A DNA stretch of 54,205 nt, the filler included, from Dirinaria sp. TL-2023a (Eukaryota), in NCBI GenBank assembly GCA_051941275.1. It is 3 parts of 3 records of this genome, joined end to end, with 100 filler letters (N's around TTAATTAATTAA, not from the genome) between each part and the next. Parts side by side here need not be neighbours in the genome. Positions count along the whole stretch, not along the records: positions 36,217 to 54,205 come from JAVEBF010000406.1; 2 more parts are not named here. One strand, 5' to 3'. The notes under the pieces are model-generated. The model saw only the letters and a program-made list of their open reading frames with translations. It was not told the DNA's origin and searched no databases. The stretch's first letter is position 1, and every line of letters begins with the position of its first letter. The translations under genes were made by a program, and so were the position numbers. Of this stretch, positions 4,109 to 54,205 are shown one piece after another.

Positions 4109-6870
4109 ATGACCACACTTTTACGGCGTACAGGCAATCTCGCAAGATTTACGAGATTAGAGCCGGAGGCAAGGCCATACTTTCTATATCATTCCGCACA
4201 GAGACTTCCTCCGAGATCTCTTCCTTCAAGATCGCCACGAGTGCCTAATACTCGAATACGGACATATGCTGCCCTTAATAATGAGAATCCGAAGAAGCCG
4301 GGGGAGCAGCAGAATGATGCTTCTAAAGCCGCAGAGAGCAGTCCGGTAAAGGGGAGGAATAAGCGAGCTGGAAAAGCGGCGCCCGGTTTTGAGCAACTCT
4401 ACAGCGATGCAAGCGCTATGTCGTCGCCCGCCGTGGGGCAGAAGGACGGGCAACACTCTATACCTCCTTCGCCCGCGACCAGCCAGGCTGAGCGGGACGA
4501 TCTGGACGAGCTATTTTCAGTGATGAAGCGAGGGATGCCTACTTCGCAAGTGAAGCTGGCTGAGAAAGCATTTGAAGATATGAAACATTATGGAATCCCG
4601 CCAGAGGTCCGCGAAATTATAGATATCAAGAAAAATGGAAGTCTAGATCTTGCGACGATGGCAAAGCTTGTGAGGATTACAACCAAGTTTGTACGGCAAG
4701 CAGTCGAGCAACAAGTCGAGAAGGAGGCCGAACAAGGAAGCAAAACAGGAGCGGATGGGGATAATTACGAAGGCGGCAAAAAGAAGAAGAAGAAGAAGAA
4801 GGCGACCGAGGACTCGTCCAACATCAACTTCAGTAGTACTGATATGAAATTGGATACACAGACATTTCTCCTCACTGCTTTTGTGGCCTATATGTTCTAT
4901 CGCGTTGCCGTACCAGCTGAGAACAGCAAGGAGATCACATGGCAAGAGTTCCGGACGACCTTCTTTGACAAGGGATTAGTCGAGAAGCTGACGGTCGCCA
5001 ACCGAAGTCGCGTCCGAGTAAATTTGCATAGAGAGGCAGTCACCAGGATGTACCCCGAAAGCCCAGCTCAGCACGCCAACTTCCATTACTACTTCAGTAT
5101 CGGCTCAGTTGAGGCCTTTGAACGAAAACTAGATGACGCCCAGAACGAGCTTGGTATTCCGAGCGCTGAACGAATACCCGTGGCTTACGTCGAAGAGATG
5201 AATTGGGTAAACACCTTGGCGGGTCTTGCTCCTACACTGCTCTTATTCGGCTCGTTGGTATGGCTTTCAAGGCGCGCAGGGGGTGGAGCAAGTGGGCAAA
5301 GTGGTATTTTCGGTATTGGGAAGAGTAGGGCGAAGAGGTTCAACCATGAGACGGACGTCCAGACAAAGTTCAAGGATGTGGCAGGTATGGACGAAGCGAA
5401 ACAAGAGATCATGGAATTTGTAAGTTTTCTGAAAGAGCCCGGCCAATACCAGAGGCTAGGAGCCAAGATCCCTCGCGGTGCCATTTTATCTGGACCACCA
5501 GGCACCGGTAAGACTCTGCTTGCAAAGGCTACGGCAGGGGAATCTCAGGTGCCATTCTTTAGCGTCAGCGGCTCTGAATTCGTCGAGATGTTTGTAGGGG
5601 TGGGACCCTCGAGGGTGAGAGACCTCTTTGCAAACGCTAGAAAGAACACCCCCTGTATCATTTTCATTGACGAGATTGATGCCATCGGAAAATCTCGAGG
5701 AAAAGGGAACTTCAGCGGTGGTAACGACGAACGAGAAAGCACCCTGAATCAGATCTTGACTGAGATGGACGGATTCAACACCTCAGAGCAGGTTGTCGTA
5801 CTTGCAGGCACCAACAGACCCGACGTACTTGACAAGGCTCTTCTCCGCCCTGGCCGTTTCGACCGACATATCGCCATTGACCGTCCTACCATGGAAGGAC
5901 GCAAACAAATCTTCAATGTACACCTTGGCAAGATTGTCACAGACGAGAACATGGACTGGCTGACTGGCCGCCTCTCTGCCCTTACGCCGGGCTTCTCGGG
6001 TGCAGATATTGCCAATTGCGTCAACGAAGCTGCTCTCATTGGTAAGACCGGATGCGTTGCAATTCCCGCCATTTGCTAATATTCGCCTCAGCCGCCCGGA
6101 CATCCGCTGACAAAGTTGTGATGAAACACTTCGAACAAGCCATCGAGCGCGTCATTGGCGGCCTGGAGAAAAAATCTCTCGTTCTCAACCCAGAAGAAAA
6201 ACGCACAGTCGCGTACCACGAAGCCGGCCACGCCATCTGCGGCTGGTTCTTCAAATATGCCGATCCCCTTTTGAAAGTTAGCATCATTCCTCGCGGCCAA
6301 GGGGCGTTAGGCTACGCTCAATTGCTCCCGACCGGCGATGTCTACCTTATGAACGTCAACCAGCTAATGGATCGCATGGCGATGACGCTTGGAGGACGAG
6401 TCAGCGAGGAGCTGCATTTTGAGACCGTCACCTCCGGCGCGAGCGATGACTTCAACAAAGTCACACGGATGGCCACTTCGATGGTCACGAAATGGGGCAT
6501 GTCGTCCAAAATCGGGTATCTGTATTTCGAGGAAGAGGACCAAAAACTACACAAGCCCTTCTCGGAGGAAACAGCACGAAACATCGACCACGAGGTGCGC
6601 CGCATCGTCGACGAAGCCTATAAGCAGTGCCGAGATTTGCTTACGGAGAAGAAGAAGGAGGTCGGGATTGTGGCGGAGGAGTTGCTGAGTAAAGAGGTGC
6701 TGGGCAGAGAAGATATGATCCGCCTTTTGGGCAAGAGGCCATGGGAGGAGAATAAGGAGTTCACAAAGTACTTCGATAAAGAGACTAAAAGTGCGCCGCC
6801 GCCACCGCCGAATGAGAGTTTGGGGGCGCCGCACGGTGGAGATGTTCCTGTCCCAGGGCCATCAATGTGA
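4109..6870 (+). CDS. AFG3: Mitochondrial m-AAA protease (Afg3/Yta12, FtsH family)
   Basis: Arg-rich N-terminal presequence, two TM segments, Walker A GPPGTGKT, Walker [22 protein letters not shown] and zinc motif HEAGH. One intron at about 6042-6090. Confidence 0.95.
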
Positions 6871-7623
6871 GCAGGTGATGGATATATAGGGCAGGAAATA
6901 TTGCTAGGACCATATCTGACCAATGTTGAAGATAGGCTTAACCGACGGGCAGGGCAGAGACGAGGCCCGAGCAGTATCAGAACAGATATGGCATGAACAT
7001 AGACAGCGAAGATTTCGTGGTTAGGAGTGTGCTATATTTCTATGGTGGTAAGGCCACCCATAACCTGGGCTTTGTTAGTATTAGGTTTCAGGGATGAGCA
7101 ACCAGGCGCGCATCATCAGACAAACAAAAGACGTTCAATCGCCTCTCGTATCTAGCTCTTATGAAATGAGAGAACTCGTCATGATGTGAAGTTTGAGGGA
7201 TTTGCTCGCCCCGTAAACAGTCTTAAATTTGAAATTTACTAGCTCGAACTCATTGCATTATTTCTCGAGGGAGGTAAGATCTTACGATCGTTGACTCCCT
7301 TTATTTTCACAAAAGCGCCCTAGAAAAAAATCAATGCAAGCAAACATTTCTGCCGTCAACATCAAACTATGTCTTTGTCCTGCCCGAGTGTTTGTGAGTG
7401 CAGCACGCCCCAACTTTATACATATGTAATCTACAACGCTAGTATGACCTTTTTGTGTACTTTGGTGGTCCGTTGAAAGTCCTTGACAAACATTAGATCA
7501 CAGAGACCGATCGGAGCTCAAGAATTCATTTTGCATGATAAGTAGGGCGGTCAGGGCGTTTTGACTTTCGTGGCTAAAAAGTTGCCGTAGAAAAGCTACT
7601 CAACGACGACCATCCGACTTCTG

Positions 7624-43174: not shown

Positions 43175-46100
43175 TGACGACTAGGGGAAAGGAGAAAAGC
43201 ACAAGCATAGGCAGAAAAAATACGCCGCGCGCACCGTCGGAAGTGAATCATTAGGCCTACTGCCAGGTCATTTGTACATATACGGATGGATCAGAGAAAA
43301 AAAGAGCTAATCTGTACCTCATATCGTCCAGGAAAAGCCACGCAAAGCTGCAACGTCCTTCGTCCCTACGACTTGAAAGGAGGAAAAGATGTAACGGAAA
43401 CAGATGAAAATATCAAGGACGGCAGTCCAATGGGATATCGACCCTGATTACACAGCAGAGGGAAGGACGAGTCCGCACTAATATGAGTGTACGACACAGA
43501 ATCCCCAATGCTTCTACTTTTCTACCTTACTCGTAGGTAGTGGGGTACATTTTCATCCCCAACACAGATCTAAGATCGGGCGACATATTCTTAATGCCCT
43601 TGATCTTGGCTTTCTAACACGAGCAATTCTGCCACCTCTACTAAGGAATATTTACAATTCCATCTCACAACAAAGCAAAGCTAAGGAACAAGACTCAGCC
43701 TACCTAATCATGCTATCTTATTCGCGCAATATCGTTAGTATCATGAGCATAAAATACAATCATCAAAAACCAATCGAAATGAACGAGGTTTCATTATTGT
43801 TTCATCTGCGTGTGAAGTTAATCCGATACTAGGCCTACCTTGAGAAGGAAGAAGAAAAGGTCCCACTGCCGCCACATTATTCTGTTCTAATGGCACACCA
43901 CCCGGCCTGCTAAATACTCATTTTTCGCGTGATAATGCATCTCGACATCTCTGATGCCTCGCATCTAAGTATGTTCATTTCTCTGCTCTGACAGAATGCG
44001 GTTCAAGCAACGACGGTTTCAAGAGGTGGCGATGAACTGATTCATCACGAACGTGTCACCTTCAAATAGGCAAACCGCTAAAGGAGGTTAAAGAGGCTTA
44101 AAAAAATTTGAGAGAGATATTGATAGATGAAAGTAATAAGTGAGGAGTATAGTGTGGCAGCAAAGTGAATGTGATGCGGCAGTAGAGTAGAGTGTGGCGG
44201 CAGTGAGATCCCAAAAAGGGGGGGCAAAAGGAGAGAGAGAGAGAGAATTCGACTGGCTAGCTGGGGTGGCCCCTCTCTCGTACCGGAGTGCTGATACTAA
44301 TTTGTAGGTTCTGAGTGCAGGAGGCAGGTAATTGAGTCTGATTGATTTGAGTTCTATCTTGGTGAACGCCAGAGCTACTCACCAAAATTGCCTGCAAGAG
44401 ATTCCCGATCATCTAAACAAATTGAATTTCGTTGAAATTCGATGCTATGCCGCACTTCTAGAGTGCTTTAAGCGCACAGTTCATATAATGTCCATTCCAG
44501 TGCTCAAAAATTGAGACTGAGGACTATTGGTGAATACTTTCCTAGTCTGAGACCTGGATACTTTTGCATCTAGTGACCTATATAAGGTGTTCGGGCTTTA
44601 ATACTTTATCAGAGGTTTCAATGAGGTTTGTAGATTTATCTTGAGCGTTGTCCGGCCCTCAGACTAAAAGACATTGAGGATTCCATCTCTCAAAACTTCC
44701 ACTACTATATATGCTTGCCACCTCTAAGGAAGAATAGGAAGCTGGTGGTTCTATCATATTCGTCGGATTCAGTTCTTTGCCCTGTACTCTTCAATCTATC
44801 TATATACAATGAATCCCCTCTTCTGCATTTCGAGTATTTATTTTCTTTGAAGTTCTTTACTCAAAATTCTCAATCTTCATTTTCGAGGCTACAGGAGCTA
44901 GCCAGAATAATCCCGAAGTCGAGCAGAGGCAGCTCGATCGATGATTCATTCTCTCAATCTTATACTATCGTGGATAATCTTGATAACCCTCTTACAACTT
45001 CTTTTCATCTATCAGTTTCTTCAGAAAAACTTCGAGCAAAGGAATCTAACATCGCTCTCCAGCAGCATTCACATTCCCGCGACCCTCTTCCGTAACTCGA
45101 TTCTTCAGACTATTGAGCGTTCAAAGTACGCAAGAACCCTTCAGCCACAATGTGATACTTCCTTCTATATTCTATCAAGCATACCATATACCCACTCTTG
45201 CTCTGTGCTCATACCGATCCTTCTGACAGAGAAAAGAAGAAGTAAACTGCAATACTGATTCTATTAAAACAGACACTGCCAGACGTGCTACCATGCGGTG
45301 CGATCCGCCTGCAATCCAGAACCTGCAAGCTGGCGGCCTACTGGGAAACGATACACAGGTGTGGAAGGTATTTTGTCTCTATTTGGGAACACGGACTACT
45401 CACTCTAGTAGCTGCAAATCTATAAGTCCCATGGAGGTACGGCGCGGCTGGAATTTTGTATAATTATTGAATTAAGAACGCAGGGGAGAAAGATTTTCGG
45501 TGCTCGCCGGTGCTGGTCCTCAAACATTGTCGTCAATTCAGTTCCACGGGACGAGAAACTGTACGTGATACGACGATGAGGTTCGCCAACTCATTGCACT
45601 GGAGCTTTATGGAATTCGAAAGAAATCGCTACAAACCGTGCAAGAATTGATTTTAACACTAGCATTCCCCATGCCAGGGCGCTATCATCCCAGGGACATT
45701 GATTAAGCCCATCCTTGTAGACAGCACTATCAAAAATGTCTTCGACCACTGAAATTCTAACCGACGGGAAGATCTCGATTGACTAAATTGAAAACATCAC
45801 TATGGATTAGAAAAAGAGCATCGACTTGGTTCTCGAACTTCAGCCGTTCGCTTCTCGCCCTAGAGGCAATTGCTCGACCGAGAGGCGTTGAGAAGCTAGC
45901 TACTGGAAATGCAGGGTGCAACAACAGCTCTAACTTTCGCTTTAAGACGGAAATGGGAATCCGTGATCCAAAGCTTGGAGATGCTTACTGGTGATATGCC
46001 GGAAGACTAAAATTCTGCGAAGAAATGAGGGCTGACCAGCTCTTGTTAGCAAAATGCGGTAACGAGGCTATGAGAGTTATATTTGATGAAGCTGAACTGG

Positions 46101-48199
46101 ATAAGAGTATGTTGAAATCAGAAGAAGACAAGCGCGAACTTTTTAGAGCCGTAAATGGCATCTTATGGTCGAAAACAACTGAAAAGAAGTTTTCGGAGGG
46201 TGACTTTTGCATTGTCCCGGTTTCGAATGAGAACACAGAAGGGGACGAAGATTCATGCTTGACAGAGATCATCAAATGTGGACAGACTAAAAAAACCAAT
46301 CGCAGCAGAGACGTATGTTTCATCGGCAGACCCACTAAAGCAGAAGACATGCTTTGAATTTTCGTTCAGGGCGGGATTCTGCGAGAATAATATCAGCAGA
46401 TCGACATCGATAATAGTTATTCGAATGTTCTGATGAATCAGGCTCAGACACAAATATTCGATGTCAGGTTAAGATGATATCATTTCTTATGTGCTCACTC
46501 GACGGCTCAAGCTTTTGAATAGCAGCTCTTCTAGCGACTTCTTCAGCTTCCATGGTCTATTGAAAGTTCGAAACATTATACATGTTTGGACCTTGGCAGC
46601 TCGATGGAGACTATGCACCAAGCGGAAGTATGATAATTGTGAACACAATATCACGAATTATATCAACAAGATCTGGTTAACATGAATGAAATCACCTTTT
46701 ACTCGTTTTCTGAGGATCTATTCTGACTCTCAGAAGTGAAGATTCAAACATGTTTTGAAGGATCGTGTTTATCCTGCTAGTAAGTACTTTAAGTTGAGAA
46801 AGTCGTCGCGATTCGAGGACCAGAGAATGGGTTCAAGATAATATTCGAGTAATGACGGTTTTATGCGAGTCAGTTATATGTCCAGACTTCCAATCTGTCC
46901 ATTCACAGATGTGAAAGAGTCAAAGAGAGATTTAATTGATCTCGTATGACATCTTTACTACTATCTATATTCGCGATTTTGGAAATAATTTCTCATCGAC
47001 GCTGAATTTCCCCATTTTGGCGGTTTATTGGCAACGTAAGTTGTTTGACGCCGAGGAAACTTCTTTTACGTTTGCGGCAGAAGAGCTGCTGCACTGAAGT
47101 GACAGCAATACCATCACTACAGTGAATTTTCTGAAGCATGCTGTGATGAACAAGTGGCTGATCAAGGATTTTTCTTCTTTCAATGGTCTACTAATAGCTC
47201 TTAAAAGCTGCTTCGGGCAAGTTCTGGTTCGACCTCTTGACGAGATTCGACAGAAGATGGAGTCTTTGAAGAAGGACTTCTACGACAGCCAGGTCTCGAT
47301 GAAGGTGGGGAAAATGATGAAGGGGAGTAAAATCCCGGCTATGAAAATGAAATTGCTTCAGTATGGCCCGGAGTTCTCAATGATGTTTGTGTTGTCAGAT
47401 TGCTTGGGGCAGAAGAGAAGGGACAAGCGCCAGGAGACGGTAGCGGTCTCCTCGACAACACCCGATGCCTGCATGTTCGAAAAGGAGAAAGCTGCGGCCA
47501 GCATTTCCTACATACTGGTATACCAGTAGCTACACCATCTCCATCTTGCCTTGCCTTTAATCTCATAGCCATTCATATTTCTATTTGTTAAACCAGCTAT
47601 AGTCTCGCTATACTTCATAAAACTTGGAAAGTCTCAATATCATATCACGAACACGCACGACATACTAATACGCCAAGGACGAGAGTGTCTGCTCTGCATA
47701 CATGTAGATATCTCTTCTGAGCTAACGAAGAAGCAGCGCGCCAATCCTCGAATGATCGAATTCGATTAAGGGCTGAAAAAGTATTTTGTTAACGTCACGT
47801 ACCCCTTTCGGTTGGTAGTTATGGATTGCATACGGCCCCTGACGACGACGACTAGTAGTGACTAGTATATACTCTATTATGTGGACTACTTCTCTCGATG
47901 CTTGGTCTCCTATGCTATAAGCACTGATATAAAGAGGATGTCATGAGGTGCCTGGAGCGGATCTTCACAGACTGGCGACAGCCAAAAGCAATTTACTGCG
48001 ACAGAGGTCAGCATCTCCCAAATGATGAACTAGAATTCTGAGTCAGCGAGCACGCGATCAGCCTCAACTCCTCTGGAGTATGTAAAAGTACGTGTATCGC
48101 AGAGGTCTCGAGTAGACTACTGGAGGATGTAGTCAGAAAAGACCCAATATGCACATCCATTGTAACGCTAAAATCGCAAAGAAGAACATGAGCCGAGAT

Positions 48200-51100
48200 G
48201 ATCGAGAATTATACAATGAGTAAAAATCAAGATTTTTTCGTAAATGACTTTTGTTGAGAGACTGTGAATCCTTCGAGAGAAAAGCGAATACGAGCGGCGC
48301 ATGGAACTTATGAGAAGTTCGACCTACTGGGTCTGTATTTCAAAAGACTTAAATCCGTCGATTGCCTTTCCCTGCGCGTCTGGTGGAGCCTCAATCGAAG
48401 ATGCTCGATTGAGCACGGACGCGAGTTAGTTCCACTTCAATCTTCTTGAGAGCAATTGACTGATTGTGATGAGCAGACTCTTTGAAAGTTCGAAGATGAA
48501 ATCTTGTGATTGAACGAACCGCGTCGAAGCGAGCAGTTGATTCGACGTGTACGATGAAAATATAATCAGCAAGTTGAGGGGCTGGCGATCAGAATGCACT
48601 GAGACTGTCTTTTAGACGGTGTATCTTGGTTCGTAACTCGCGGATTACCAGTGCCTCCACCTCTTCCAGTTGAAGATGCTCACATGCCTGATTGAGCATG
48701 CACTCGAGTGAATTTCGCTCTGCGCTTTGGAAATAAATGGCTGATCTTGGTGCAAACACTCTCTTCTATTATCACTGAGAAAACCATATAGTTTTCTTAT
48801 GGGCATTTGAACGTTGTTGGGGGCTTCTAATGCTTTATTTTATCCTCTGCCATGCGTCCATAGGTAGTCTCTCACATCCATTTCCTCTCACTTGCAAAAC
48901 CCACACAGAGAATGCTCAAACCTGGATTTCTTGCCGCAGCTCTTTCCCAGTTCGGGAGGCACGAAGACCTGACTTCAGATACTTCATGGGTTTTCAAGAC
49001 TACATGCGGAACGGCAGAGACGTGTTGAGACAGTCAGATTTGATGAATGGGCGCTCAGCAGATGTCTAATATGATTTCAAGTCTACAGCTTACGAAAGGT
49101 AAGCGCTGGCTCAAGATTCGGACTCATCGAGAGCAGTAAAAGCTCTTTTTATGGTCCCATTTATCAAAGATCCAAAACTCTCGATCGCATCGATATTTTC
49201 AAGACCATCGAAGAGCAGAGTAAAAAAAGTAAAGCTGGGTCGCACTATCAGGTATCGGTGGAGTTGGATGAGCAGTCAAGGAGCAAAGTAAACGCATCAA
49301 TACACAAGAAAGACTTTGAAGTCTTTTTTCGAGACAAATGAAGAAGGTTAGAGAGACGATTTACGAATACAATCAGTTTCAACGAAATAAGTTCATGATA
49401 AGCATGAATATGGTCGACATCATTGCAAGAGTAAGAGAAACTTCGGATCCTCTTGATACTCAGAAGCAGAACGGAGAGGACGCCCATCGGCGAAGAGCGA
49501 GATCAGGACTCAGAGCTTACGGCAGGATAATTCATACATCAAAGCTCAAAGAAGAAACACATTCGCAAATGCGTGGCCAATATTAGAGCTAAGCATCAAG
49601 GAATCAGCGGCGAAAAACCCTCTACTTCTCTACTGATTGATTACTAATTGATGACGAGTTGCTGGAGTTAATCTCATGGAAAAGCTCGAGAGCATCAATC
49701 TCGCTGAGTACGTATAGTCATCAGAGGGTATTCTTTATAAAGAACACGAGTACTTGACCAACAAAAAGGATAAAGACGCCAACTATTTATGCTCAGATGG
49801 AGTGCCTATATCAATGCTGTATTCGGACGAGGTTGACTAATTGCAAGTAAGGATAGTTAAGATCTTGTCAACGCTAAAGAGAAATTAATTGAGAGAGATT
49901 TATATTTTCAAAAGTCTGCGATGCCGGAAACAAAGACGTTTAAGCTGTTGAGCGCTTCGAAGAAGAAAATGAAGACCAATTTCTAAATCGACACAGATTT
50001 CAATTTTTAAGTTGCCTTCACGTCTGCATCAATTGGCGTCAAAAAAACAAAATGAATTAATGATTCCACTGAGACCTCCACGGAGAAAGTCGTACTGCGT
50101 TTCGAACAAAAGATCAATCACATACATCTGCAGAGACTAAACATCCGCTGATAAGTGAGAGGAGCTAGCTCGTCACCACAAGACGGATTTCGAGAGAATT
50201 CCACTCGATTCAGAAGAGTTCTGCGTGCGACTTTATCGTCAGGAATCATCCAGATAAATCTCTTCATTGCATCCAAACATCATCAAAATGGCTCCTTTCT
50301 TGCGCAATAAGTAACCTAGCATCCAGAAAATGGCACATCTGACGTTATATTGCACCCCAACGCCAACGAATTGCTCCAAGTGGACGAGCAGGAGTTTCTT
50401 CTCGTCTACCCCATGCTGAGCGAGATGCGATACGGCGTCTTCGTCGACAGATAATTGCGCTAATTGCTGGGTACTTTGCCCTGTTCGATCTTAACATCAC
50501 GCATCCACAAGAGTTGCAGGCGATGCTTGTCCAGGTATGCTTATTCTTATTCGTACGAACCACTCCGCGAGCTCTGACCTTAAACGGTGCAACGGACGAG
50601 CAGTTGAGTTTATTTCATTGATACGTTCCATGATTGGTTCAATTCTGTCAATTCTGAGAATTAAGATACTTCTCGTTTCAATATTTTAGAGCGAATCTAG
50701 ACAAAGAGTCTCTAGCGAAAGTTTTAATTTTGACGGACATAGAAGAGGATTTGAAGAGCGATACGAAAAAATTCCACTTTGAAGAAGTCTTATTTGCTGA
50801 TAAGAGTGCCGCGATTGCTCTCCAAAACCCTCTTCAAATCTCTCATGTGTTTGCTCGAAATTTATTTATTCACATGGTTCGTCAATATCGAATCGATCGA
50901 GAGAAAAAGCCGAAGTCTCTTGATCAGGGACTTGGACTTTTTAACAATGTTTAAACTCAGTCGATCTCGACTTCTGTGTCACAATCTCGAGATGTCTTAC
51001 TGAATAATTCTTTTGTAATCTTTTGTTCTCTTAAACACTTGGGACGTTTCGAGTGATTGTTAACAACATTCCACTCTCAAACGAACGCACAGACAGAACG

Positions 51101-51860
51101 GCGAAACCAAAATTTGGAACATCATCTTCGTTGCTTTATCAACTTTTATCATACAGACTACAAGAGTATCTTGGACTTAGCAAAGCTCACTGATATTTCA
51201 GTTGAGAGTTCGATAAGCTCAACAACAAATTCCAATACAAGAAAACAACAAGAATCGCAATATACAATCTAGCGTTGGAAAATCAAATATTATACTACAT
51301 GATCAAAGATTTCTTTTCATCATCACTCGATGAATATTTTCAATTAATCGATTTTCAATATAAGTCGCTGAGAGCAAAATTGAAAAAACGCAACACTTTA
51401 ACAAACTCAACACAAGAGTATTTGTATTATACATTCGAAATATTCGAATTGATTTTGTTGAATGATAACGATATCCTCGCATCGATGAAAATAATATGCT
51501 GCGAGAAAATTTCAAAGTACAAAATGACTTTGATAAGTTAAGTACGTCAATATAATAAATCTTATCGAAGAGTTTTTGAAGTTGATTGAAAAAACCTCTT
51601 CTACAGATCACAAAATCTCTCAGCATCGAAAGAATTCTCATACTTACATCGAAATTGTTACAGTTATCTCGATTCTCGACGCTCTCAAGATTTATTTGTC
51701 TGTCTCTCTTTTCACGCTATAATGTGCTTCTGTTCACGAAACAGCCTTAGAGTTATTGATAATTTAGTCATCTGACCGACAACAAGCAGGATATGTTCAT
51801 TTCTCTCGAGCAGAAAATTTGTATTCTAAATTCGCCACTAAGACCACTGCGTTGACATAG
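48200..51860 (+). mobile_element. Heavily mutated Ty3/Gypsy LTR-retrotransposon relic (boundaries approximate)
   Basis: Integrase core TFHSQTNAQTERRNQNLEHHLRCFIN at about 51057-51140 (consensus AFHPQTDGQTERxNQxLExYLR). Weak protease-like LIDD..AGVNLM at about 49645-49680. Many stops, AT-rich. Confidence 0.65.
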
Positions 51861-51862
51861 AG

Positions 51863-51891
51863 ACTCCCATAAGTGCAAACTCCCATAAGTG
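51863..51891. repeat. Direct repeat ACTCCCATAAGTG x2 (16-bp period)
   Basis: Copies start at 51863 and 51879. Confidence 0.85.
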
Positions 51892-54205
51892 TAATTTGTC
51901 TAGCAAATAATTAAATTACGCTTTAGTTCTTGACTTTATCCTCGGATCATCTCTGCACTTCCAGAACTCATCAGAATCAAATAATCAAAAGGCTAGGGAG
52001 AAATAAGAGACTTATCAGTTCAGAGAAGGTGAAAGATCTGACGAAGATCAATGAAACCATTGATTCGAAAGATGACACATCTTAATAAATGCAGTCAGTC
52101 ATTTTTCTGTCATTATGAAATAGAAAGAAAGTGATAGAAGTTAAAAGTGGGTCTGCATTCTATCGGAAACAAATTTTCTATCAATAATTCTATTGGATAT
52201 CATATTCGCTAACAAGATATCATAGATTATCACTTTTTTCTCTTCAAAAACTTCTGTCAAATATTTCACCAAGAGAGAGAAAGCTGTCGTTCGAAAGATG
52301 ATTTCACATTTTCGAATCCTGCGAACAGTTTTCAGGTTTAGCGAAATAACAAGTAATGTTGATCCCCACAAGAATGGCTGAAATTCACAGATCGATGTCG
52401 CAAACGCAGAAACGATATTTGATTCCTCGATGTTGGAATCTTGTTCTCAAGACCTAAATGGAGGTTACATCTCCAGCGAAGGAGCAGATCTCACGACGAC
52501 TTTTAAACTTTGATCACTACGAGTATCCCTCCAGGGGAAGCTGTTCACTGAATATCACAAAAAAAATAATCCTTCTGTCGTTTCAGCCATGTCTACCCCT
52601 GAGAAGGATATCGGGAAGAAGAGATCTGTGGCGGTATCGAACATAGCGATGTCCGAAGCCCTAGCTATGTCGTTCTAATTGTGTTTCCACTTGAGGAAAG
52701 TATGATAAGAAGAGATCTGCGGGAAACTTCAAAAGAGAAGATTCCGAGAGTTTTCAGAGAAAACATAATTCTCGTCTCATTAGAAACGTCTCCCTCGCTT
52801 CGGTCCCCCAGTCGTGTTACCATACTTGAAAGAAGTCGGACATGAAATCAGCTTCGATCTAAGATGGTTTCTTAAATCGCCAAAGAGAAAACTAATGCTG
52901 AGTCAAGAAGATAATAAAAATATCAATTTTGCCTACTACAAAGGAAAACCCACCATCTACATTCATTATTCCCGAAGTCACCCGAGATCATTACAAAAAT
53001 AACTATGATCGTATACTCGCCACTTTCACAAATGTTATTAATAGTAATACTATTCGTGGGTAGTAAAATTATCATGATTTTTTTCAATCGAAGGTTCGTT
53101 GAAGTGAAGAACGACTCAATATTTTTCCTTTTCTACACCTTTTAGGTCAATTTACCTGCTTAACTTAGCAATGGATTCATACCTAGACACTATACTCGAC
53201 CAGGAGAAGCAGAATTAAAGAAGTGAAGAGAAAGCGATGGCGACATTAAAGATGGATCGCCCGCTCAAACGGATCAATCAACTCGAATCTGAAGCTGATC
53301 ATGTATCATCGCGAGCGACGAGAAACTGGGCTGCGCTAAGACTCAGTCGACTCTGATCTCACAAGTTTTTCTTACCACTTAGTCTCCTTTCTGAATGAGA
53401 TGTATAAAGAGTCGGAAATCTTCATTAAATGAATTTTCAAAAGCAATGCTACAATCTACTATTCCAATCCCGACTTACTCTAAACTCTTCACCATTAGCA
53501 GATATCCTCCTTTTCGAAGAATAGTACAGCATCAGGGGCATCCTGAAGAATCCCTACGCAGATATACCAACCGCATAACTCACTTCTAAGTCATGTCCAT
53601 CAGAACACATGCATCGAAACGCTCACACATAAGAAAGCGAGGAAAATGTATAAGACAGCAACCATCGACTTGCACCTCATTTCTAAAAGTATAGACGACT
53701 TCCTATTCTAACTGACAAGACTAGAATAGCTATGCAGCGACGAAAGACTAAAGATCCTTTCAAACAACAAAAACGAGTCCGATATCAGCGACAAAAAAAC
53801 CGCAAATTCCCTGAAAGACAAAAAAAAAAAAGTTCGACGAAAAAAACCAAAAAATATCATATAAAATAATCATCAAAACTCAACACCCCCTCTAATCCAC
53901 CTCAGCACCAACCAACAAATGTCGTCTCCTAAACCACACTCCGTGACCATACCAATATGTAAACCCGCATCCTCAACACCCCCAACAACATTTCTTAGAT
54001 AGGTTGACCAAAACGGTCTAGCTTGACTAGACTAGTCACCTCAACACCTCTAAGGGTAAATAGTGCCCACAAATGCTTTTCCATAGACTTTAGACAATGC
54101 ATGCTACATACACATACCAAATAGGTGCAATTGACCCGTTGGCCATATAAATCTGACACAATACCACTCCAAACCAACCTCCCCTTAAAACATCTCGCTT
54201 ACTAT

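Follow-up and report, generated by a model that had tools for sequence, protein, structure and literature searches.

A repeat-limited, two-stranded C-to-T mutator with C-C-D specificity in the genome of Dirinaria sp. TL-2023a

Introduction

The stretch of DNA analysed here (54,205 nucleotides, hereafter the window) consists of three N-joined contigs from the assembly of Dirinaria sp. TL-2023a (GCA_051941275.1; 27.7 Mb in 3,105 contigs). On contig C406, whose end is also the end of the window, it carries a block of repeat relics from which the dinucleotides CC and GG have in places almost disappeared, and this raises the question of which process removed them. A preliminary description, made from the sequence alone, had proposed a repeat-directed mutator acting at CpC rather than at CpA, the target of canonical repeat-induced point mutation (RIP). 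Its counts for positions 51301-51720 are exact: 10 TCGA, two CC and no GG, with CA, TG and CG common (28, 19 and 18). In base-shuffled versions of this segment, CC and GG together average 19.8 +/- 3.8, with two or fewer reached in 0 of 20,000, and TCGA averages 1.2, with ten reached in 0 of 5,000. The observed/expected ratio (o/e) of CC is 0.10, compared with minima of 0.33 among 3,200 windows of equal length from 200 kb of unselected DNA and of 0.58 among 700 such windows from positions 1-43,000.

In the following, we describe a mutator of C to T that is limited to repeats, works on both strands and is specific for C-C-D (D = A, G or T), and for which the evidence leaves us with hardly any doubt. 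It represents a repeat-directed, non-canonical, RIP-like defence variant whose target differs from the known CpA, and the window exemplifies, in modest form, a signal that is strong across the genome.

Results

Mutation spectrum of repeat copies

The relics at 49000-52200 have two short paralogues only and no close copy, so that no family alignment can be made there; direct proof that CpC is the target was therefore drawn from repeats belonging to other families in the genome. The sample comprised 30 of 33 reverse transcriptase (RT) matches, seven integrase loci, five DDE_1 loci, and two Gypsy elements with open frames of 1,313 and 1,315 amino acids and the domain order RT-RNaseH-integrase, each represented by 30 loci (from 40 and 65 matches, respectively). 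Copies were compared pairwise with open-frame copies; alignments that spanned 100 or more bases with no less than 80% identity were kept and duplicates dropped, leaving 26 of 44 and 24 of 100 alignments for the two Gypsy references.

Relative to the first reference, C>T and G>A changes amount to 657, reverse changes to 92 and transversions to 42; for the second, the numbers are 640, 207 and 198. C>T and G>A occur in one and the same copy, i.e. both strands of the duplex were mutated. Sorted by 3' neighbour, C>T changes affect CC at 423/792 and 438/981 sites, CT at 152/1257 and 104/1117, CA at 72/1083 and 61/1057, and CG at 9/769 and 31/673, which corresponds to 9-12% for CpT, 6-7% for CpA and 1-5% for CpG. 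The copy comparisons thus bear out the earlier proposal of CpC, and not CpA or CpG, as the target, with the 5' C of CpC dominant.

In a few of the alignments behind these pooled totals, it is the reference that carries the mutations. In a recount that considered each reference site once and removed such alignments (43 alignments), the three resulting sets gave 222/240, 164/256 and 22/23 for CCD, 18/63, 16/57 and 0/3 for CCC, 92/342, 36/360 and 13/59 for CT, 46/297, 45/394 and 3/49 for CA, and 3/287, 15/228 and 1/36 for CG. The cleanest single pair comes from one locus, L067, where a Gypsy 3' end and a partial duplicate next to it (1-1324 and 5886-7209) can be aligned without gaps over 1,324 bases. 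The 96 differences comprise 34 C>T, 61 G>A and one transversion, at rates of 81/140 for CCD (68/98 in the internal part and 13/42 in the long terminal repeat, LTR), 4/34 for CCC, 5/161 for CT, 3/196 for CA and 2/100 for CG.

The genome yields 473 copy pairs with 10 or more transitions, and in 442 of them CC is mutated at a higher rate than any other context. The 31 exceptions include 17 pairs in which CC is exhausted and CT mostly leads; CpT is thus a secondary target that becomes visible after CC depletion. An old LINE-like pair (L077/L079; 158:124:102) is too diverged to be read.

The target is the 5' cytosine of C-C-D

In 42 alignments, isolated CC dinucleotides (n = 1,065) became TC in 565 cases, remained CC in 394, and became CT and TT in 41 each. 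Isolated CCC trinucleotides (n = 226) read CTC in 102 cases, CCC in 81, TTC in 11 and TCC in five. If both cytosines that precede a C were equal targets, equality would be expected; instead, CTC stands against TCC plus TTC at 102 to 16 (p = 2e-16), and by distinct site (n = 68) at 44 with CTC alone to six with TCC or TTC alone (p = 3e-8). Since it is the middle C of CCC that is mutated, the base after the second C matters. The target is therefore the 5' C of C-C-D, which is narrower than the general CpC specificity first proposed.

The identity of D is without effect (CCA 196/320, CCG 118/207, CCT 293/538), and the bases at -1, -2 and +3 have no influence on CC mutation; a 5' T, in particular, is not preferred (239/388 versus 182/337 and 186/340). 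Rates are also alike at codon positions 1, 2 and 3 (97/141, 79/120 and 65/103), so that the pattern is not shaped by selection. The overall order is CCD >> CCC, CT > CA >> CG. On the coding level, near-saturating CCD mutation removes Pro, Gly and Trp codons and creates TGA stops: eight RT relics contain 11 TGA, two TAG and two TAA, a surplus of TGA that is expected from TGG losing its last G.

Confinement to repeats and performance of RIP indices

Of 100 500-bp windows taken from RT loci, 55 have a CC o/e below 0.3. The same applies to one of 73 windows on 20 small contigs, and to none of 400 windows drawn from 20 unselected 10-kb stretches, in which genic and intergenic DNA are pooled. Two of these 400 fall below 0.5, both within one TCGA-rich patch of a large contig (L157 2900-4100, CC o/e 0.33-0.48). 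The elements hit are Gypsy internal regions, LTRs and the DDE_1 DNA transposon (CCD 19/19, 12/22 and 25/29), and the mutation of the latter rules out cDNA editing. Profiles in 250-bp steps show saturated stretches directly adjoining unmutated ones. C>T and G>A changes do not cluster by strand along the copies (548 switches; null expectation 554.6 +/- 15.9, p = 0.36).

The usual RIP product and substrate indices have thresholds of 1.1 and 0.75. As anticipated in the preliminary description, they miss the signal: 0 of 55 saturated windows pass both, and among 1,295 own-genome windows three do, all of them near the thresholds. TpA is not enriched, and the relics have a GC content of ~35% with a CG o/e of ~1.9. 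Because the loss of C-C-D leaves GC moderate, they are easily mistaken for ordinary intergenic DNA. A single window is of the CpA type (L016 3001-3500; CA o/e 0.59, TA o/e 1.40, CC 1.09), possibly an older or foreign relic of CpA RIP.

A survey of Gypsy elements from public metagenomes covered the best 80 of 604 confirmed loci, in a ranking that favours intact elements; one of the 80 (L236) has windows with CC o/e below 0.3. This Gypsy relic (L236 1-5735) has a CC o/e of 0.33, a CG o/e of 1.8 and a mild loss of CA, and contains 0 CCG and reduced numbers of CCA (46) and CCT (54); TGA is not dominant among its stops. In a different organism, this may be a signature akin to, but distinct from, that of Dirinaria.

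The relic block in the window

The following features were delineated (no strand is assigned unless given):

48200..50499, weakly depleted patchwork of old relics, class not identified, CC o/e 0.68
50500..52300, clear CC/GG-depleted block, o/e 0.50, GC 35%, 22 TCGA, 0 CCGG, TpA/ApT 0.64
50961..51191, plus strand, broken C-terminal piece of a Ty3/Gypsy integrase, tblastn E 6e-11 to 2e-9 against Gypsy polyproteins
51278..51745, near-saturated core, CC o/e 0.09, 10 TCGA, 0 CCGG
52301..53800, hardly depleted end of the span, CC o/e 0.84
53958..54158, 201-bp solo LTR with TG...CA ends and a 5-bp target-site duplication, CC o/e 1.29

Hypermutation had been described for the whole of 48200..53800; the strong loss holds for ~50,500-52,300, while the rest is uneven (0.68 and 0.84), so that this span was overstated. 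The reading of the integrase motif, by contrast, was correct: the relic encodes HSQTN (codons TCT and ACG AAC) where open-frame copies encode HPQTD. Gypsy identity is demonstrated for 50961-51191 only. The core contains three runs free of CC and GG (198, 120 and 150 bases); it gave no match in a six-frame Pfam search. A six-frame Pfam scan of 45500-54205 likewise found 0 families. The pieces 49124-49277 and 50332-50542 have one paralogue each elsewhere, 73-81% identical, and three diverged pieces in or close to the span, compared with such single paralogues, gave CC 15/48, 4/17 and 6/19, and CG 5/38, 5/24 and 5/24. We infer that the window relic is an old product of the CCD mutator.

The solo LTR provides a short-repeat control. 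In 11 fetched copies of 86-92% identity, its CC sites are spared (7/216 and 23/256), whereas LTRs of ~350 bp are hit in some copies, a comparison confounded by age. For RIP of linked repeats, a length threshold of ~400 bp is given in passages of PMC3318451. An old interspersed repeat of ~350 bp at 43850-44210 (~30 matches at 71-80% identity, class not identified) shows CC transitions at ~32% versus 9-18% in the other contexts, with many transversions and again with age as a confounder.

Elsewhere in the window, positions 1-43,000 have a CC o/e of 0.95 and encode ordinary fungal proteins (m-AAA protease, SPO22, Rgp1, a TPR protein). By eye, a possible second, frameshifted relic resembling an integrase core lies at 47780-48150; tblastn and Pfam gave no support for it. 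A broken gene copy at 45926-46282 is 66-70% identical on the protein level to a 338-aa open frame on contig C293 (L046), which has no Pfam match; one TGA stands where this paralogue has Trp.

DNA methyltransferases

A PF00145 search of the genome returned two genes, one RID-type and one that we read as DNMT5 from its motifs. The RID-type gene (L068 62-2662, minus strand, contig C1379) has an intact PCQ and the motif VI triad EQT, which passages of PMC6709928 describe as the mark of Masc1/RID. It is truncated at the contig end past motif VIII, apparently at an intron. The encoded protein is identical to one whose source labels it Dirinaria, and its named relatives come from Physcia, Heterodermia, Usnea and Teloschistales; we accordingly read the fungus as a lichen-forming Lecanoromycete, of the order Caliciales. 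The earlier suggestion of a divergent RID or DIM-2 pathway thus holds insofar as a RID-type gene is present. DIM-2 was not found in this fragmented assembly, either by PF00145, by a BAH search (five matches at four loci, which read as RSC1/2-, SNT2-, BAH-PHD- and ORC1-like) or by a motif scan (0 of 15 matches exact; 10 inspected, none in a methyltransferase-like frame); given the fragmentation, the loss of DIM-2 is not thereby proven.

A quick tree built from the best 120 of 461 matches groups the Dirinaria RID with three other proteins in one clade (SH-aLRT 96). Right after EQT, this clade has SG in place of RR (R in 102/117 and 114/117 other lichen RIDs), at position 788 it has I in place of F (F in 115/117), and five residues past the catalytic Cys it has P in place of D (D in 103/117). 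The latter position aligns with a residue of M.HhaI that we take to be Ile86; counting from C710, presumably the catalytic residue of DNMT3A, it would match DNMT3A I715 and DNMT3B N656. According to PMC7335073, in the part concerned with these residues, a swap between them shifts CpG versus CpH specificity about two-fold. Residues specific to the clade, next to motifs IV and VI, may contribute to the target shift; they are offered as a lead only.

Discussion

Origin of the C-C-D signature

We consider it probable that the signature stems from RID-dependent RIP, homology-triggered and premeiotic, with its target moved from CpA to C-C-D. Repeats would be recognised by homology ahead of meiosis, a RID-family enzyme would methylate or directly deaminate the flipped C, and the RID of the Dirinaria lineage would read a C at +1 and reject one at +2. 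We infer the link from RID to mutation, the acting enzyme and the reading of homology in the sexual stage from the genome. The more specific proposal that RID changed from CpA to C-C-D via a small number of residues adjacent to the active site, and works without DIM-2, is a tentative one.

Several observations speak against RID-dependent RIP or weaken its basis. All 95 transitions of the L067 pair lie in one copy, and homology-triggered RIP should hit both; the one-sidedness could reflect a tandem insertion or a collapsed or chimeric contig. The mutations of one RIP round cluster on one strand, and no such clustering is seen, although many rounds would erase it. The pooled alignments have ancestry and reference sites in common, and the spectrum of the window pieces themselves is weak and noisy, with many transversions. 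Neither a relative's whole protein nor its C-terminal part, used as queries, located the 3' part of RID (target-recognition domain, motifs IX-X) in the assembly; one weak 32% match was obtained, and the gene may not be whole. Nor is the D>P exchange in the catalytic loop peculiar to the clade: 7 of 117 other lichen RIDs share it, two of them from Variospora.

Some of these observations would fit a chromatin-guided process, possibly mitotic, in which C-C-D is methylated and mutated in silenced regions with the copies unpaired; the enzyme could be a DIM-2-like protein whose gene falls into an assembly gap, or else RID or DNMT5 guided by heterochromatin. The one-sided L067 pair and the absent strand clustering favour it, and in an assembly of 3,105 contigs in which RID itself is cut, a gene may hide. 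In Zymoseptoria, moreover, Dim2 mutates repeats from CA to TA in mitosis and spares methylated CG (PMC8016269, in part), and CpG is spared here, too. Yet CA is the site of the known Dim2 mutations, three kinds of search returned no DIM-2, and saturated stretches lie directly beside unmutated ones. We therefore regard this process as rather unlikely. A two-step process, in which methylation of the 3' C of C-C-D (by DNMT5 at CG, or otherwise) comes first and a deaminase or the methyltransferase then acts on the adjacent 5' C, would account for the mutated middle C of CCC, and draws on the DNMT5-like gene and on the metagenome relic with CCG 0, CCA 46 and CCT 54. However, CCA, CCG and CCT are equally hit in Dirinaria, which a CG-specific DNMT5 cannot explain, and we deem this scheme improbable.

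The remaining candidates, i.e. APOBEC-like editing of cDNA, ultraviolet (UV) damage to dipyrimidines, specimen damage or assembly error, and doubly hit CpA RIP, are together very improbable. APOBEC3G-type editing affects the 3' C of CC on one strand of retroelement cDNA; the preliminary description had already set it aside, and we reject it since CC>CT (41) is rare compared with CC>TC (565), both strands of one copy are mutated and a DNA transposon is hit. Lichens are exposed to UV, the signature of which consists of CC>TT tandems and TC>TT changes genome-wide; it is rejected as well, since TT makes up 41 of 1,065 outcomes, a 5' T is not preferred and the effect is limited to repeats, which equally argues against damage or error. 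CpG decay is rejected because CG is the least mutated context. Double mutations of CpC to TpT do occur under CpA RIP in Monilinia (PMC8959702, in part). Canonical CpA RIP is nevertheless rejected here: CA rates reach 6-7%, TpA is not enriched and the indices are negative in 55 of 55 saturated windows.

Significance

A survey published in 2025 and covering 1,239 fungal genomes reports, in its parts bearing on context, that RIP-like defences have a CpA preference in common (PMC12543289). The Dirinaria genome is a clear counter-example to this rule, one that the usual indices score as negative. As of PMC8016269, in its relevant passages, no activity data for RID/Masc1 enzymes were available. A lineage with another target, clade-specific RID residues and an undetected DIM-2 suggests a swap experiment on the determinant of RIP context. 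If RID was indeed retargeted, it would be a natural specificity variant with which to test whether the choice and mutation of the cytosine are the work of RID itself, and CpA-based surveys would misfile a set of fungi as RIP-less.

Comparison with known systems

In the literature searched, we found no report of CpC-dominant RIP, a search to which Clutterbuck 2011 and tables S13-S14 of PMC12543289 were outside scope; a CpC-dominant case in either may bear on novelty. The passages concerned in PMC2621366, PMC5555474, PMC5602860 and PMC13535494 likewise report none. Clutterbuck 2011 is cited for wide variation of RIP context (passages of PMC3318451 and PMC8959702), and the context preference of DIM-2 is left open in the pertinent part of PMC11315935.

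Among lichen fungi, Cladonia rangiformis and Xanthoria also have mutated repeats (PMC12542154; bioRxiv 10.1101/2025.11.25.690456; both in part). There, unlike here, RIP was recognised from a very low GC content (peak ~16%) or with standard RIP-region tools; Cladonia possesses both RID and DIM-2, and CpC goes unmentioned in the relevant passages of both sources. The mitotic Dim2 mutator of Zymoseptoria tritici resembles the present case in mutating repeats and sparing CG, but CA accounts for over 98% of its transitions, and it depends on dim2 (PMC8016269, same passages), for which no counterpart was found in Dirinaria.

RIP contexts vary in other lineages as well: CpT/CpA in Magnaporthe, Botrytis and Sclerotinia, and CpG signatures in Tuber and, as TpCpG, in Pucciniomycotina (PMC4352252, PMC3318451; both in part), the latter showing that a trinucleotide target is possible. 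In ascomycetes, CpA and CpT signatures accompany RID; the passages of PMC4352252 on context name CpA, CpT and CpG only, with 0 mentions of CpC. In contrast to these contexts, CpG is the least mutated in Dirinaria and the additional specificity lies at +2, not at -1.

The RID pathway of Neurospora crassa differs from the process described here in its target, CpA and not C-C-D, whereas the order in Dirinaria is CC >> CT > CA >> CG, TpA does not rise, relics keep ~35% GC with a CG o/e of ~1.9, and DIM-2 was not found; premeiotic timing and RID dependence are presumed for Dirinaria. Both systems nevertheless have in common a directional excess of C:G>T:A changes, mutation of both transposon classes up to saturation, the escape of a short repeat, and a RID-family gene with EQT in motif VI.

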